The translations under genes were made by a program, and so were the position numbers. 64,000 nt of DNA from Escherichia phage MiataMamis: the sequence record PP925834.1, one strand, 5' to 3'. The notes under the pieces are model-generated. The model saw only the letters and a list, made by a program, of their open reading frames with translations, did not search any database and was not told the DNA's origin. Positions 37,683-42,632 of the stretch are shown here, one piece after another (the first letter of the stretch is position 1; each line of letters opens with the position of its first letter).

Positions 37683-37727
37683 TTTACTTTATTGATGGCC
37701 CTGGTGTCAAGGCCATCTAAAAATAAA
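37683..37727 (-). promoter_or_regulatory. conserved ~45-bp intergenic element, copy 1 (promoter/operator-like)
   Basis: TTTACTTTATTGATGGCCCTGGTGTCAAGGCCATCTAAAAATAA; on minus strand TTGACA lies in loop of GATGGCC/GGCCATC palindrome. Confidence 0.5.
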
Positions 37728-37728
37728 T

Positions 37729-37929
37729 TTATAAGCCTACAATCTCTTTGATTCGTCTAACTGCTGCCTCAGCGCCTTGAGGATAGAAATTATGGTAACC
37801 AATCACGCGAGTGATACTAATAGCCGCTTGATGATCTTCATAATCGCCTTTGAAGATTTCTTGACCATCAACCAGAACAGCCAGCTTTTCATCTTTTTTG
37901 AAGTTGATAACGCGGATATTCTTGCTCAT
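37729..37929 (-). CDS. hypothetical protein
   Basis: ATG after AAAGGAGA RBS (trimmed from track ORF). Confidence 0.45.
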   Translation of the reverse strand: MSKNIRVINFKKDEKLAVLVDGQEIFKGDYEDHQAAISITRVIGYHNFYPQGAEAAVRRIKEIVGL

Positions 37930-38426
37930 TTTTCTTTCTCCTTTCCAGGTCTTTGTTTGTGTAGTGGGGATGTCTCCCCGTTGATTGTTATTATCCACAT
38001 TGCGGACCGGATTGCAACATCCTGGAAGAAAAATTTTTGAAAAAGTTAAGCCCCCATGATCGGGGGCCGTTATCAGTTACTTACAGCTATAAAGTACATT
38101 CCCACGCCTAGCAATATTTCAAGGGCGATGATCTCCAGCCATACTATAACATGTTGCACCTTGCCGCCAGGCTTAGGCTTATCCTTGGTTGTCATCGTCT
38201 CCCCCTTTCATTTTGTTGGTGATGACGTGATTTGCAATGGCCCCCAGGAGGCCTATCACTACGCACATTGCGAGAAAAATTATTTCTACCGTTGTCCGAT
38301 CCATTGTTATAAAATTCCTCAAGGTCAGGTTTGAAAATAAACTCTTCGGTGTCGAATCCATCACGCCAGGCGGCTGGCTTCAGATCTTTACTAAAGGGAT
38401 TAATTAGCGCGGCATTGTTGAGACGG

Positions 38427-38786
38427 TTAGCCCACATATTTTCTATTTCTCTCAAATAAGCGATCCGCTTCAGTTAAACATATTTCATGGGCCTGATCTC
38501 TGGTTTTAGCCTCATCAAAAACTTGTTGTGCCAGGCTGCAGCGCAAGGAGACTGGAAGATCGCTATAATAGGCATTAACAAAAGTTTGTGCGTCATACAA
38601 GTCTGAAAATACTTTACCCTTTCTATTATTGCCCTTGTCAACAATTGCAAGGATGACCAGTATAATAGTTGCAACCACTCCCAGGAAAATAGATATAACA
38701 AACCATAAGAAAGCTGACCTGCCTATCTTGCCAGCGATCCAGGCGTTAAACAAGGCAACTAATACAGCTAAAATAATAAATTCCAT
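38427..38786 (-). CDS. membrane protein (two TM helices)
   Basis: MEFIILAVLVALF...FLWFVISIFLGVVATIILVILAIV. Confidence 0.45.
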   Translation of the reverse strand: MEFIILAVLVALFNAWIAGKIGRSAFLWFVISIFLGVVATIILVILAIVDKGNNRKGKVFSDLYDAQTFVNAYYSDLPVSLRCSLAQQVFDEAKTRDQAHEICLTEADRLFERNRKYVG

Positions 38787-38850
38787 TCTATGTACCTCTC
38801 TTACATTTCTACTTAACAATAAGGCGGCAAATATGCCGCCTGTTGCCTGG

Positions 38851-39231
38851 TTAAAAGTTATCGCCGTAAATTTTACCGCTTTCTACCCATACCACAACAC
38901 GCGGCATATTATCCCATACATCTTGTTTTAGATTGAGGGCGTGCAATTCTTCGGTGGTGCTCATACCTGGCACGGGTTGATTGTATACTGCAAAACGACC
39001 GCCTGCATAATCATAAGCCAGAGTTAAATCACACTGGATCATCTTTTTGATCATGGCGTTAAGCATAGCGGTAGCCGCATGCTGGTCACGTTTTAAAGGT
39101 AACGCTTTAATCAGTTTGCGATAGTTTTCGATATGGTCGCACACTGTTTCACGTGGAAGATCTTTCATATCTTCACGGAAGGTAACCAGGTTAAACATAA
39201 CAGTGTCAATAGCTTTCGTGGTGTTTTTCAT
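38851..39231 (-). CDS. hypothetical protein
   Basis: 126-aa ORF. Confidence 0.5.
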   Translation of the reverse strand: MKNTTKAIDTVMFNLVTFREDMKDLPRETVCDHIENYRKLIKALPLKRDQHAATAMLNAMIKKMIQCDLTLAYDYAGGRFAVYNQPVPGMSTTEELHALNLKQDVWDNMPRVVVWVESGKIYGDNF

Positions 39232-39321
39232 AATGTTATCCTCTTCGTTTTGTGTGGGGGCAAACGTCTTGCCCCCTTGAGTTTTAATATAGCACGTTTT
39301 TAGATTATTGCAACACTTTAC

Positions 39322-39945
39322 TTATGAAAAACTCATCTCGCCAGATTCATCGACATCAAACCGCCAGTCGTTGGCCTGGATGAGGCCGATCAAGTTCTCT
39401 GCCGTGAACTGTTCAAGATATGCCTCTTCAAGGCTTGCGTAAACCTTGCAAGATAGCTCCCGCACCGTCTCGGTGATCAACTCTTCCAGCTCTTCCACTT
39501 TGTCTTCTTGTTTGGCGGTCAGATCCAGCCAGGTAGCATCAATATACCCGTTGATAGTATTTTCGTGACTATAGCGGCTGTATGCGTCACGTTCAACACT
39601 GGCTGATAGCTCGCCATCATGCATTGTTCCGAACAAGTGACGGATTGAGCGGAACTTAGTCAGCGCCTTGACTTTACGCAGGAATTTTTCCAGATCTACA
39701 TTTTCAGCGCTAATTGATGCACCGTCGCCCTGACACCAAAAGCCGGACCAATGTACTTCAGTATCTTCAAGGCCATACTCTGGAAAAACATATTCTTTAT
39801 AGTATTCAATTACACTTTCTGCGAAAAAGTTATCACCGCTATTTTCTTCCCTTTCGCGGACCATTTCAACGGCTTTTTCTTTTTGTTCGTCGGTCAGCAC
39901 GTCGAAAGATAAATTGTAACCTGCAGTAATGTTAACGGTAGTCAT
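39322..39945 (-). CDS. hypothetical acidic protein
   Basis: 207-aa ORF; upstream TTGACA-N16-TATACT. Confidence 0.5.
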   Translation of the reverse strand: MTTVNITAGYNLSFDVLTDEQKEKAVEMVREREENSGDNFFAESVIEYYKEYVFPEYGLEDTEVHWSGFWCQGDGASISAENVDLEKFLRKVKALTKFRSIRHLFGTMHDGELSASVERDAYSRYSHENTINGYIDATWLDLTAKQEDKVEELEELITETVRELSCKVYASLEEAYLEQFTAENLIGLIQANDWRFDVDESGEMSFS

Positions 39946-40018
39946 GATATTTTCTCCTGTTTTCTTTTAAGTGGTGGGAATTGTTCCCGCCTATGTGGTT
40001 AAGTATACTTGTTTAATC

Positions 40019-40279
40019 TTACTTGTCAACACTATTTTTTAAATTATTGTGGCGTAAAAAGTTCAAGATCTCTTCAACATTGTCAACACGGCGGCAATTT
40101 TTGAACGCTACCAATTGCCCCAGGATTTTAATCACCGGGCGGCCCTGGCAGTATCCTTGAAGAAAGCGCGCCTTAACTTTATCGGTGGAACTATCACGCC
40201 ACCAAACCGCTTTATTGTTGCAGTAGTAAAAATTATTCAGGACTACATCAACTTTATCAAAATTTTTTAATTTACGCAT
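40019..40279 (-). CDS. hypothetical basic protein
   Basis: 86-aa ORF. Confidence 0.45.
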   Translation of the reverse strand: MRKLKNFDKVDVVLNNFYYCNNKAVWWRDSSTDKVKARFLQGYCQGRPVIKILGQLVAFKNCRRVDNVEEILNFLRHNNLKNSVDK

Positions 40280-41068: not shown

Positions 41069-41266
41069 TTATTCTTCTTTGTGTCGGTATCTTTCTGCCT
41101 GGCGTTCACGTTCAAGAAGCAAACCAGGTAACTTACGGTCGTAATGGTTGCGCCATAGCTTGCCAAATCTTTTTGGTTTGTTTAGCTTGTTGTTACGCTG
41201 GCGGCGTTCCGGCAACTCTTCGGAATCATGGGAACGCTTTACAATTTTTTCGAAATTAATTTTCAT
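41069..41266 (-). CDS. hypothetical basic protein
   Basis: trimmed to MKINFEK start. Confidence 0.4.
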   Translation of the reverse strand: MKINFEKIVKRSHDSEELPERRQRNNKLNKPKRFGKLWRNHYDRKLPGLLLERERQAERYRHKEE

Positions 41267-41627
41267 AAATTCCCCCTTTGCTAACCTCGATATTTGCCTG
41301 AATTGCACGAATACGGCGCTTTATAGCTTCCTGGTTTGTGTGATCGTATCCCCAAAAGTCTACAATTTTAGCGCCTCCAGCCTCCAGGCGATATAGTGTT
41401 TCTTGCATTTTGTAAGCGGGGATCGGTCGCGGTGTTACCTGGTCGCCCTCCTTATTCTTATATTTGATAATATAATCTTCGTTATCGTTGAATACCCAAA
41501 ATGGATATTCTGCAATAGTATTATTTTCTTTTTCGTTTTTAGATTGGATCTTATTTACAATTAATGCTGTTGCAATAGCTCCGATGATAAAACTTGCCCC
41601 ACTAATCATAGTTCTTTCTCCTTTCAT
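41256..41627 (-). CDS. hypothetical protein with N-terminal TM helix
   Basis: 123-aa ORF. Confidence 0.45.
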   Translation of the reverse strand: MKGERTMISGASFIIGAIATALIVNKIQSKNEKENNTIAEYPFWVFNDNEDYIIKYKNKEGDQVTPRPIPAYKMQETLYRLEAGGAKIVDFWGYDHTNQEAIKRRIRAIQANIEVSKGGIYEN

Positions 41628-41685
41628 TGTGTTAATAAGTTATCTTTATAGATGGCCCTGTTACCAGGACCACCGAAAAAACAAT

Positions 41686-41931
41686 TTATTTCACAATCCC
41701 CACAAAACAGATCCCACCTTCACCAACATAAGCAATATCGGTAACTTTGTAATTGGTTAAGATTTGTTTATTCAGCTCATTAATAAAATCATCCATAGCT
41801 GCGGTGTAGTTGTCTTCCATATCCAAGGCATAATCCCAGGTATAAACCTTTTTACGTCCGAACCCTTTTACCATGATGCGGGCGCTTTTGGTGTTGGTCG
41901 GTGCATAGTATTTGGTGATTAATGCTGCCAT
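41686..41931 (-). CDS. hypothetical protein
   Basis: 81-aa ORF downstream of conserved intergenic element. Confidence 0.45.
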   Translation of the reverse strand: MAALITKYYAPTNTKSARIMVKGFGRKKVYTWDYALDMEDNYTAAMDDFINELNKQILTNYKVTDIAYVGEGGICFVGIVK

Positions 41932-41967
41932 GATTTTAACTCCTCTGTAAGTGTTAACAGTTTTTTA

Positions 41968-42012
41968 GTTTACTTTATTGATGGCCCTGGTGTCAAGGCC
42001 ATCTAAAAATAA
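41968..42012 (-). promoter_or_regulatory. conserved ~45-bp intergenic element, copy 2
   Basis: identical core to 37683 copy. Confidence 0.5.
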
Positions 42013-42014
42013 GC

Positions 42015-42356
42015 TTACTCGTTTTCTTCCAGCTCTGTAAGCTCTTCTTTCACTTCCTCAAGCTCTGTCTGCAATTCCTGGTATTCTTCATCGTCCTCAA
42101 TATCCAGGCTGTCGATGTAGTCGCTAAATCCGCAGCGGTAAGCGATAGGATCTAGCTCCTTGAGGATACGCGACGGAAGAAAAGAAATGTTTCCGATCAT
42201 AATTTCGCCGTAGATCTCGTCTAACCATTCATCATAGTTTTCGTCGTACTTGTCCTCGTCGATTTCAAAGTTATCGATCTTATTCTCAAGGTCTGCGATC
42301 TGTTTTTTCAGCGCGGCGATCTGCATGGCTTTTTCTGCGGCGGTCATAGTAGTCAT
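42015..42356 (-). CDS. highly acidic coiled-coil protein
   Basis: D/E-rich throughout. Confidence 0.5.
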   Translation of the reverse strand: MTTMTAAEKAMQIAALKKQIADLENKIDNFEIDEDKYDENYDEWLDEIYGEIMIGNISFLPSRILKELDPIAYRCGFSDYIDSLDIEDDEEYQELQTELEEVKEELTELEENE

Positions 42357-42587
42357 GGTGTTTTCTCCTTTTGTGTGTTCTGGGAAGTTTTCCCGTTGAT
42401 GTGCTTAGTATATCGATCTAAGTTAGCTTGTCAATTAAAAATTTAAGAAAAATTTTGCAAAACTGTTAGCGCTACTCATCAACATTTGCGCCAGGATGTA
42501 CCCAATGATGCAAACGATGATGGTTACCTTTGTGTGCTGGCGTGTGGTGCTCATCTTCAAGCCTCCTTTTTAGCTTAACTGGGATTA

Positions 42588-42632
42588 GTTTACTTTATTG
42601 ATGGCCCTGGCGTCAAGGCCATCTAAAAATAA
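42588..42632 (-). promoter_or_regulatory. conserved ~45-bp intergenic element, copy 3
   Basis: one substitution (GGCGTCAAGG) relative to other copies. Confidence 0.5.

Follow-up and report, generated by a model that had tools for sequence, protein, structure and literature searches.

The window analyzed here, a 64,000-nucleotide stretch of the genome of Escherichia phage MiataMamis (PP925834.1), is the early-gene region of a Vequintavirus (rV5-like coliphage), with its genes on the minus strand. Read along that strand, the part of interest contains a 131-aa gene (42635–43030, stop at 42635–37), a 39-aa membrane-like gene (42435–42554, start at 42554), a 113-aa gene (42015–42356, stop at 42015–17) and an 81-aa gene (41686–41931, start at 41931, stop at 41686–88), followed further on by a 66-aa gene (stop at 37729–31) and a 101-aa gene (37340–37645, start at 37645). 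None of the nine proteins flanking the elements described below has a Pfam domain above the curated cut-off, and all of them, including the 131-, 81- and 101-aa products, fall in PHROGs of unknown function. The neighborhood is rich in insertions and deletions relative to other phages. A canonical σ70 early promoter, TTGACA-N16-TATACT, lies in front of the 113-aa gene (42407–42434, minus strand), and about 17 other early promoters in the window have TTGACA with an A/T-rich upstream region. The same region contains canonical terminators with U-tracts (41061–41040 and 36934–36913), and a true promoter-coupled terminator lies within the window at 34430–34403.

The initial annotation had reported three copies of a 45-bp intergenic element in this region. 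The repeat is real: the 44-mer TTTACTTTATTGATGGCCCTGGTGTCAAGGCCATCTAAAAATAA occurs exactly at 37683–37726 and 41969–42012, and with one substitution at 42589–42632, while 100 dinucleotide-preserving shuffles gave 0 matches. Of the reported starts, 37683 was right, whereas the second and third were each one base too low (true starts 41969 and 42589), and the conserved unit behind the 44-mer is actually about 59 nt long. The reported surroundings hold for all three copies. A minus-strand TAA stop codon lies 2 nt before each (37729–31, 42015–17 and 42635–37), and the next gene begins 35–45 nt past the other end, with a good AGGAG-type Shine-Dalgarno sequence and an ATG. The GATGGCC/GGCCATC inverted repeat, read on the minus strand, has TTGACA at its apex (TTGACG in copy 3), with TAAAYT 18 bp beyond this hexamer.

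All copies lie on the minus strand. Copy 1 (59 nt, 37675–37733, 79.9 bits) separates the 66-aa and 101-aa genes, copy 2 (41961–42019, 78.0 bits) the 113-aa and 81-aa genes, and copy 3 (42581–42639, 77.1 bits) the 131-aa and 39-aa genes. We identified a fourth, diverged paralogue directly after the stop codon of the 81-aa gene (41632–41690, 71.6 bits), which has 64% identity over 64 nt (41625–41688), keeps the hairpin and lacks the -35 hexamer. In every copy, an A/T-rich tract containing the upstream stop codon, TAA-NN-TTATTTTTA, lies immediately 5′ of the stem. The whole rV5 genome has exactly four members of the family, all within the early leftward unit. A BLAST search of the element against 50,697 phage records matched only Vequintavirus genomes and phage KKE7M. 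Mean pairwise identity is 95–98% for the element, 89–93% for the upstream coding sequence and 66–85% for the downstream leader.

The palindrome behaves as a hairpin in the sense-strand RNA. The inverted repeat is longer than first seen: the upper helix is a G/C helix of 10 bp with a tetraloop, and the flanks supply a second, lower A/U helix of 10–12 bp, joined to the first through a 2×3 internal loop. This two-part hairpin of about 59 nt begins at the stop codon of the upstream gene. RNAalifold independently gives a two-part helix of 10+10 bp, in which four pairs keep pairing after changes on both sides. When the structure was specified, 94.8% of 660 cells were paired, compared with 35–55% when the partners were slid by 1–3 columns. 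Pairing reaches 100% of cells in the upper helix, and five lower-helix pairs have changed on both sides, although these compensatory changes represent few independent events, mainly the split between copies 1–3 and copy 4, because the sequences are closely related. Wherever a pair is imperfect, the sense strand has G·U and the opposite strand C·A, and the sense strand folds at -20.7 kcal/mol versus -16.8 kcal/mol for the antisense strand. Individually, copies 1, 2 and 3 fold at -27.7, -20.7 and -21.0 kcal/mol (z scores of -6.4, -4.1 and -4.5), with their upper stems at 37694–37717, 41980–42003 and 42600–42623, respectively. Substitutions among these three fall almost entirely at two loop bases. 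Copy 4 forms the same two-part hairpin (-21.1 kcal/mol), conserved in 13 related loci; its upper stem GGUGGUCCUG/CAGGGCCAUC has two G·U pairs and a GUAA loop. Compared with copies 1–3, 3 of the 10 positions in its 5′ arm differ while the other arm is untouched, and all three changes preserve pairing (A-U to G·U, C-G to U·G and U·G to C-G).

As for the suggestion that the element is a promoter family, a σ70 promoter is plausible for copies 1–3. The putative -35 and -10 hexamers are TTGACA (37705–37710) and TAAATT (37681–37686) in copy 1, TTGACA (41991–41996) and TAAACT (41967–41972) in copy 2, and TTGACG (42611–42616) and TAAACT (42587–42592) in copy 3; they match the consensus at 10, 10 and 9 of 12 positions and lie about 30 nt before the Shine-Dalgarno–ATG. 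The -10, with a match at only 4 of 6 positions, and the 18-bp spacer speak against a promoter. The loop bases A and C of TTGAC do not vary in the 22 distinct rows of copies 1–3 in alignment A2, whereas three of the four loop bases of copy 4 vary; one metagenomic variant outside this alignment reads TTGATA. The sole wobble in the upper stem of copies 1–3 is the U that TTG requires. PhagePromoter called a promoter at the element in phage Gotham, while none of the 33 promoters listed in the curated rV5 annotation lies there, and no promoter was called for copy 4, which has CTGGTA at the -35 place. In one metagenomic variant of copy 3 the hairpin is intact, and two 1-nt insertions place the hexamers 20 or 15 bp apart, which suggests that the promoter is dispensable, or was lost there. 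Conservation of the -10 and of the lower helix cannot be assigned to one function, because the same bases serve both. A search of the literature for transcript 5′ or 3′ ends, reporter assays or cleavage data from any Vequintavirus found none.

Comparison of related phages shows that the element copies are recombination joints where small gene cassettes are lost or swapped. Copies 3 and 2, spaced 620 bp start to start, form the direct repeats at the ends of a 620-bp module (42013–42632, minus strand) comprising one element copy, the 39-aa gene, the σ70 promoter and the 113-aa gene. Phages ECP32 and ime and a metagenomic relative (UViG L008) lack this module, and each has one hybrid element with the upstream flank of copy 3 and the downstream flank of copy 2. 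Four loop alleles, ACAC, ACTC, ACTT and ACGC, each recur at all three sites in different genomes. A stretch of 44–59 bp is short for homologous recombination, and the deletion of the module possibly had a single origin and spread later.

A second exchange crosses a subfamily boundary. KKE7M, a Justusliebigvirus, contains the 113-aa gene with its promoter and one element. Comparison with EC.P2 shows that in KKE7M this element replaces a canonical TTGCAA-N16-TAAACT promoter; the gene downstream is the same, and the -10 hexamers are aligned in register. Both cassette junctions are inside promoter sequence: the upstream crossover lies in the shared spacer of the promoter at 42407–42434, the other in AATAAAGTAAA. 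Further indels in the early region likewise end at -35 hexamers.

Taken together, we propose that the copies are probably composite intercistronic cassette joints in an early region transcribed by host RNA polymerase, with an RNA, a DNA and an evolutionary layer. At the RNA level, transcripts from upstream promoters fold into the two-part hairpin at the stop codon of the upstream gene. Since no U-tract follows, efficient intrinsic termination is unlikely; about two helical turns with a central internal loop fit a processing or stabilizing structure, for instance an RNase III site or a block to 3′ exonucleases, or else an attenuator by which expression of the two flanking genes is uncoupled. 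At the DNA level, the hairpin sequence of copies 1–3 would also encode a σ70 promoter. An upstream A/T (UP-like) tract may be provided by the T-rich 5′ strand of the lower helix, TTGAC would span the loop and the apical part of the upper helix, and the 3′ strand of the lower helix would bear TAAAYT 18 bp on. Transcription would then restart about 7 nt past the hairpin, giving the next gene a leader of about 25–30 nt, and copy 4 would act as a hairpin alone. At the evolutionary level, the copies serve as crossover points because they are nearly identical, and recombination between or within them deletes, inserts or replaces small genes whose functions are unknown, along with the signals that express them.

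The closest known kind of element is the promoter-early stem-loop (PeSL) of T4-like phages, described in RB49/phi1, T4/PST and KVP40/nt-1 (Arbiol et al. 2010, PMC2839356; Comeau et al. 2014, PMC4122927), which matches in architecture and not in sequence. PeSLs have five positional stem-loop subclasses, one of which overlaps the -35. Both kinds are intergenic composites. They begin in an A/T-rich tract, at the stop codon of the preceding gene, contain a stable stem-loop with G·U/G·T pairs (here the 10-bp upper stem encloses the -35), and end with a Shine-Dalgarno sequence and a start codon. Both have σ70-like -35 and -10 sequences, present here in copies 1–3 and not in copy 4 (CTGGTA). Several copies of each lie in a plastic region among small genes without a known function, at deletion, insertion or replacement junctions of related phages, where hybrid copies are left behind; the cases here are the copy 3–copy 2 hybrid and the cassette replacement in KKE7M. 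The differences are also clear. The lineage here is Vequintavirinae, with one transfer into Stephanstirmvirinae, and the BLAST search found no sequence similarity to T4-like phages; because its matches were confined to Vequintavirus and KKE7M, we regard the element as an analogue of PeSLs and not a homologue. Each genome here has four copies, three of them nearly identical, whereas PeSLs are dozens of looser motifs; the helix here is long, two-part and covarying, whereas PeSLs have a polyG/polyC stem; and one member here has no promoter. Measured promoter and attenuator activity and the formation of mini-circles during infection also belong to the PeSL kind.

Other systems share single features. 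In promoter-coupled terminators (Fletcher et al. 2026 preprint, 10.64898/2026.08.19.745784), stem-loop DNA likewise overlaps the -35 of the next unit, so that a single sequence closes one transcription unit and opens the following one. There, however, the T-tract forms the spacer and the -10 follows directly; here AATAAAG follows the stem without a T-tract, and classical termination is therefore not expected. RNase III signals span about two helical turns, and an internal loop may limit cleavage to one strand (PMC1540722); the duplex here has this length (10 plus 10–12 bp with the 2×3 internal loop). The RNase III signals of the T7 early genes (R0.3–R1.3, with R1.1 as the model substrate; PMC1540722) are likewise a family of similar intercistronic hairpins in early mRNA made by the host polymerase, each about two helical turns broken by an asymmetric internal loop, and after cleavage at a single site in the loop the upstream message would end in a protective 3′ hairpin. 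The T7 sites have no promoters, however, and the resemblance is one of shape only. Halovirus HF2, according to the abstract of its description (PMC8707807), has short repeats between its genes that are highly conserved and lie at promoters; the virus is archaeal and its promoters are of another type, and that abstract reports neither a hairpin nor cassette exchange.

We considered whether the element might act in RNA only, with all four copies serving as intercistronic hairpins (RNase III sites or exonuclease barriers, as in T7) and the TTGACA/TAAAYT match being incidental. This would account for the structured copy 4 without a -35, for the copy 3 variant that retains the hairpin and not the hexamer spacing, and for -10 bases that double as lower-helix pairs. 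We nevertheless consider it rather unlikely. TTGAC is invariant even in the loop, whereas the copy 4 loop varies freely; the weaker U·G pair is tolerated in the upper stem exactly where TTG needs a U; and in KKE7M the element stands in for a canonical promoter before the same gene.

The built-in operator of the initial annotation, in which GATGGCC/GGCCATC would bind a dimeric regulator of phage or host origin and the bound protein would cover the -35 of co-regulated promoters, found no support. The palindrome does bracket the -35, neither arm varies in about 350 copies from 120 phage records, and there are documented cases of a terminator palindrome also serving as a transcription-factor site, such as LexA at yobI/ruvA (10.64898/2026.08.19.745784). 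The imperfect pairs, however, are strand-asymmetric, and an operator has no need of A/U flanks that covary as a helix. The half-sites, perfect over 7 bp in copies 1–3, are asymmetric in copy 4, where one arm alone is altered, every asymmetry is of the G·U type and the copy is not at a promoter. Their centers lie about 17 bp from each other, an unusual distance for a dimer, a recognizable DNA-binding domain was found in 0 of the 9 neighboring proteins, and no copy among 5,426 E. coli genomes points to a host regulon. Such an operator is very unlikely.

We give even less credence to plain rho-independent terminators. A stable G/C hairpin directly after a stop codon invites this reading, prediction software called it in phage Murica, where copies 1 and 4 are annotated so, and PeSL stem-loops lowered downstream reporter expression (PMC2839356). 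The stem is followed, however, by AAUAAAGUAAA on the sense strand and UAAAAAUAA on the other, a U-tract on neither, a terminator scan did not list the element, and the same region has the canonical and promoter-coupled terminators given above. That the element is a promoter only, with a hairpin potential arising from an A/T-rich upstream tract, a G/C spacer and an A/T-rich -10 and an identity due to recent duplication, is hardly credible: the roughly 17 other early promoters of the window share its TTGACA and A/T-rich upstream region, but none carries the palindrome, copy 4 retains the structure without a promoter, compensatory changes are present, and in genomes that are about 88% identical overall the flanking coding sequence is less well conserved than the element.

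Beyond these readings, the proposed cassette joints raise a more far-reaching possibility, which we regard as quite improbable: that what signals mobility is the hairpin, recognized in replication or recombination as a structured single strand of one polarity, rather than sequence identity alone. In a milder version, the elements may be a new class of phage-encoded "insulator plus restart" parts processed by RNase III. A hairpin serving as the mobility signal would account for pairing that differs between the strands, a position directly after stop codons, a member that lacks a promoter, and the jump from one phage subfamily to another. A gene with its 3′ hairpin would then act like an integron cassette with its attC site, minus the integrase, and the promoter would make the inserted gene self-expressing.

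A 44-mer was located at 37683–37726, 41969–42012 and 42589–42632 (copies 1–3), with 0, 0 and 1 mismatches and none expected by chance. The three-copy repeat of the initial annotation is thus real; its first start holds, and its second and third were each one base too low. The nearest GenBank genomes are ~88% identical to the window (megablast), which corresponds to the early genes of an rV5-like E. coli myovirus (Vequintavirus), and the minus strand carries all genes of the region. On that strand, the sense strand of the element, each copy is laid out as TAA-NN-TTATTTTTA-GATGGCCTTG-ACNN-CAGGGCCATC-AATAAAGTAAAYT. 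It starts 2 nt past a small gene's stop codon and ends ~25–30 nt ahead of the Shine–Dalgarno (SD) sequence of the following gene, confirming the intergenic position first described.

The element's presence in related genomes is borne out by 120 phage records, which nearly always hold three copies at at least 95% identity. IMG/VR pattern scans returned two contigs with the element, and the scan of one metagenome returned six further related contigs and three chance matches. The surroundings are less conserved than the element: mean pairwise identity is 95–98% in the element, 89–93% in the upstream coding sequence and 66–85% in the downstream leader. A search of 5,426 E. coli genomes gave no match, and a host-derived REP-like repeat or host regulon site was rejected on this count. 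The single PLSDB match, CP057073.1 (137,565 bp, three copies), is listed there as an E. coli plasmid of the non-mobilizable type but is evidently an rV5-like phage genome. Seventeen GenBank records (MG0656xx) named as Campylobacter phages are Vequintavirus genomes ~88% identical to the window with the element present, and their host label looks doubtful. Existing annotation is inconsistent: the GenBank record of phage Gotham labels the element “promoter” (PhagePromoter), that of Murica “terminator”, and those of rV5 and HdK5 leave it unannotated. The rV5 genome paper predicted 33 promoters and 20 terminators, with the element unmentioned. In the literature searched, we found transcript start mapping for no Vequintavirus.

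When folded, the sense strand gives a hairpin in two parts, with the palindrome forming only its top. The upper helix is a 10-bp G/C stem closed by a tetraloop. A 2×3 internal loop separates it from a lower A/U helix of 10–12 bp, in which the T-rich tract that follows the stop codon pairs with the A-rich tract containing TAAAYT. Folding energies on the sense strand range from −20.7 to −27.7 kcal/mol (z-scores −4.1 to −6.4), and the antisense strand folds worse (−16.8 kcal/mol). A repeat search also identified a diverged paralogue, copy 4, which is 64% identical (41625–41688) and lies directly past the stop codon of an 81-aa gene; its two-part hairpin, without a −35, spans 41632–41690 on the minus strand. 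Copy 4 is kept at the same position in 13 of the 13 related loci that were readable. A covariance model run with filters off found just four members, both in the 64-kb window and in the complete rV5 genome, all of them within the early leftward unit, so that the original count of three is extended by a copy it had not listed. Searches for homologues in other Vequintavirinae genera recovered relatives of the flanking 81-aa protein in unrelated phages only, so synteny is no guide to diverged elements.

The stems are invariant in copies 1–3, and covariation there can therefore be obtained only from copy 4. An alignment was built of 30 distinct copies (14 genomes), sequences so closely related that all pairing and covariation counts represent few independent events: RNAalifold on its own predicts the same 10+10 helix, with four pairs still paired after two-sided changes, and 94.8% of 660 cells are paired in the specified structure, compared with 35–55% when partners are slid by 1–3 columns. 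Every aligned sequence keeps the upper helix paired, and two-sided changes occur at five lower-helix pairs (e.g., A-U/U-A at 10–48, U-A/G·U/A-U at 9–49 and G-C/A-U/G·U at 6–52). As a separate observation, copy 3 of Gotham (MT682716, locus positions 9500–9540) is missing GGGCC (5 nt) from its 3′ arm, which destroys the hairpin and cuts the hexamer spacing to 13 bp; the copy is a natural null allele or else the product of misassembly at the hairpin.

Copies 1–3 are likely active as putative promoters. Their σ70 hexamers score 10/12, 10/12 and 9/12 with an 18-bp spacer, and substitutions among them across many genomes fall almost only at loop base 3 (the sixth −35 position) and loop base 4 (the base that follows it). 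The A and C of TTGAC, at loop bases 1 and 2, do not vary except in one metagenomic variant, described below, with TTGATA; in copy 4, CTGGTA occupies the −35 site and variation affects three of its four loop bases. The sole wobble in the upper stem of copies 1–3 is the U required by TTG, and a C-G pair stands there in copy 4. Furthermore, phage EC.P2 has a canonical TTGCAA-N16-TAAACT promoter where its relative KKE7M (Justusliebigvirus) has the element, with the −10 hexamers in register and the same downstream gene, including its 5′-UTR hairpin, following both. The position of the element relative to SD-ATG is also that of ~17 canonical early promoters in the window. The alternative, that copies 1–3 lack promoter activity, draws on a −10 that matches at only 4/6 positions, on the absence of a call at the element in the stringent search of the rV5 authors, and on a metagenomic copy-3 variant that keeps both helices with the hexamers 20 or 15 bp apart owing to two 1-nt insertions. 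We weigh these points against the consensus match combined with loop-base invariance, the wobble U, the functional substitution in KKE7M and the SD-ATG position, and consider this alternative the less likely. The promoter part of the proposed co-regulated promoter with a built-in operator thus stays plausible, with hexamers at 9–10/12. The variant itself (Ga0129313_1000039 = IMGVR_UViG_3300010279_000001) was found in no isolate. Its copy 3 has the loop TTGATAAC (+1 nt), one extra A past the stem and a G-to-A change that converts a lower-helix U·G to U-A, so that the structure is kept and the promoter spacing is not; the 39-aa gene downstream is strongly diverged.

A rho-independent terminator fits the element less well. 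The stem is followed by AAUAAAGUAAA on the sense strand and by UAAAAAUAA on the opposite one, with a U-tract on neither. The element is not among the terminator-scan calls, while the same region has canonical terminators at 41061–41040 and 36934–36913. At 34403–34430 (minus strand) we identified a promoter-coupled terminator, in which the hairpin AAAACAGGGC-TTGCAA-TGGTCCTGTTTT holds the −35 in its loop and is followed by a T-tract spacer and a −10 TATACT; this architecture was recently reported as widespread (preprint 10.64898/2026.08.19.745784). The element shares the layout with the −35 inside the stem-loop but lacks the T-tract. Its helix is about two turns long with a central internal loop, and single-site cleavage at such a loop is known to leave a protective 3′ hairpin (PMC1540722). 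We infer that the hairpin may serve in processing, stabilising or attenuating read-through transcripts, the role we prefer. As an operator for a dimeric regulator, the initial proposal for the palindrome, the element has nothing positive in its favor: the flanks covary as a helix, the half-site centres are ~17 bp apart, nine neighbouring proteins lack a recognisable DNA-binding domain, all imperfect pairs across the family are G·U on the sense strand and C·A on the opposite one, and the three upper-stem arm changes of copy 4 relative to copies 1–3 lie in the 5′ arm only and all preserve pairing (A-U to G·U, C-G to U·G, U·G to C-G). This is the pattern expected of a sense-strand RNA (or single-strand DNA) hairpin, not of a double-stranded protein site, and the RNA hairpin takes the place of the operator, which is unlikely.

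Three further candidates were discarded. An in-frame mini-ORF within the element (ATG GCC TTG ACA CCA GGG CCA TCA ATA AAG TAA; MALTPGPSIK) has no SD; the common variant ACT TCA turns its Pro into Ser, and copy 4 lacks the ATG. The Dcm/EcoRII site CCAGG in the 3′ arm is not a conserved feature, as it is gone in the frequent ACTT loop allele (TCAGG). Rfam searches of the whole window gave no match to a known RNA family at gathering thresholds and only chance-level matches at permissive ones.

Genome comparisons directly show the copies to be recombination joints. ECP32, ime and a metagenomic genome (L008) carry a single element with the upstream flank of copy 3 and the downstream flank of copy 2, and lack the intervening 620 bp, which contain the 39-aa gene, a canonical promoter and a 113-aa gene. 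The loop alleles ACAC, ACTC, ACTT and ACGC are each present at all three sites, in different genomes, a recurrence that points to exchange between copies. Among phage records searched by BLAST, KKE7M (Stephanstirmvirinae) is the sole one outside Vequintavirus with the element; its cassette consists of the 113-aa gene (94.7% identity), the promoter of that gene and one element. Judged from the sequences, its difference from EC.P2 is a cassette replacement, with the upstream crossover in a promoter spacer common to both lineages (TTGACAAGnTAACTnAnATC) and the downstream crossover in AATAAAGTAAA, the −10 region common to the element and the resident promoter. Another stretch, of 548 bp (40363–40911) and containing small ORFs, is present in the window and one metagenomic relative and missing in six others (rV5, HdK5, isim, Gotham, Murica and L008). 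Each of its junctions lies exactly at a TTGACA −35 hexamer, so this is a second promoter-bounded cassette. Relative to Gotham, Murica and rV5, a replacement at ~35316–35928 has its right-hand junction (35928) just past TTGACAAC, the −35 belonging to the promoter at 35936.

This organization resembles the promoter-early stem-loops (PeSLs) of the T4-like phages RB49 and phi1. In these, the upstream stop codon lies inside an A/T-rich tract, the promoter is σ70-like, and a stable stem-loop that includes G-T pairs takes one of five possible positions (one overlapping the −35), with SD and ATG at the 3′ end; PeSLs cluster among function-unknown genes of hyperplastic regions, with hybrid copies at indel junctions (PMC2839356; PMC4122927). 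Every sequence-testable feature of these PeSLs is also found in the element. The two are not homologous, however, as BLAST of the element against phage records returned nothing in T4-like phages. Unlike PeSLs, the element family has only four tightly conserved members, a long two-part helix backed by covariation, and one member without a promoter. The annotation of rV5 lists several small early genes in common with RB49, so both phage groups do use one cassette pool. Neither the element nor PeSL-like elements in rV5-like phages were found in the literature collection searched, itself incomplete. The element would best be labelled a Vequintavirus cassette joint of the PeSL type (“hairpin plus restart promoter”).

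Other repeats and hairpins occur nearby. Many canonical early promoters of the window (60648, 59417, 43114, 40029, 39313 and 36201, minus strand) have a G/C-rich hairpin within ~10–20 nt downstream. These hairpins would sit at transcript 5′ ends, and the HdK5 annotation calls some of them terminators; a pair at 48553 and 59340 are near-identical 27-mers. Justusliebigvirus carries a repeated intergenic hairpin of its own, GGCGGGAAATGGTTTCCCGCC, in the loci from KKE7M (3700–3730 and 4720–4750) and EC.P2 (1560–1680), sited as a 5′-UTR hairpin immediately past canonical promoters. A conserved translation-initiation region (sense ACCACAAAAGAGGAAAACATCATG) has five copies in the window, at 33901, 34233, 36120, 42354 and 43779 (plus-strand coordinates), and a similar one occurs in both Justusliebigvirus loci. 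The stretch 44559–44759, with no convincing ORF, is a non-coding array of three degenerate 62–74-nt units with a GAAAACGAAAAA core, which could be an iteron-like or other regulatory repeat.

What stands out is a compact 59-nt object with an RNA structure cleanly superimposed on a putative promoter, its promoter-less paralogue, and the documented transfer of a cassette from one phage subfamily to another, in which each crossover lies within promoter sequence. Copy 4 as a natural promoter-less control, together with natural deletion alleles, makes the balance between read-through and re-initiation testable. The rV5-like phages are widely isolated candidates for therapy and biocontrol, and their early regions are almost all annotated as “hypothetical”. 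The element is a practical marker for the borders of their accessory early-gene cassettes, which likely comprise host-takeover or anti-defence genes, and a PeSL-type joint here would mean that the shuffling of promoter/stem-loop cassettes reaches beyond T4-like phages.
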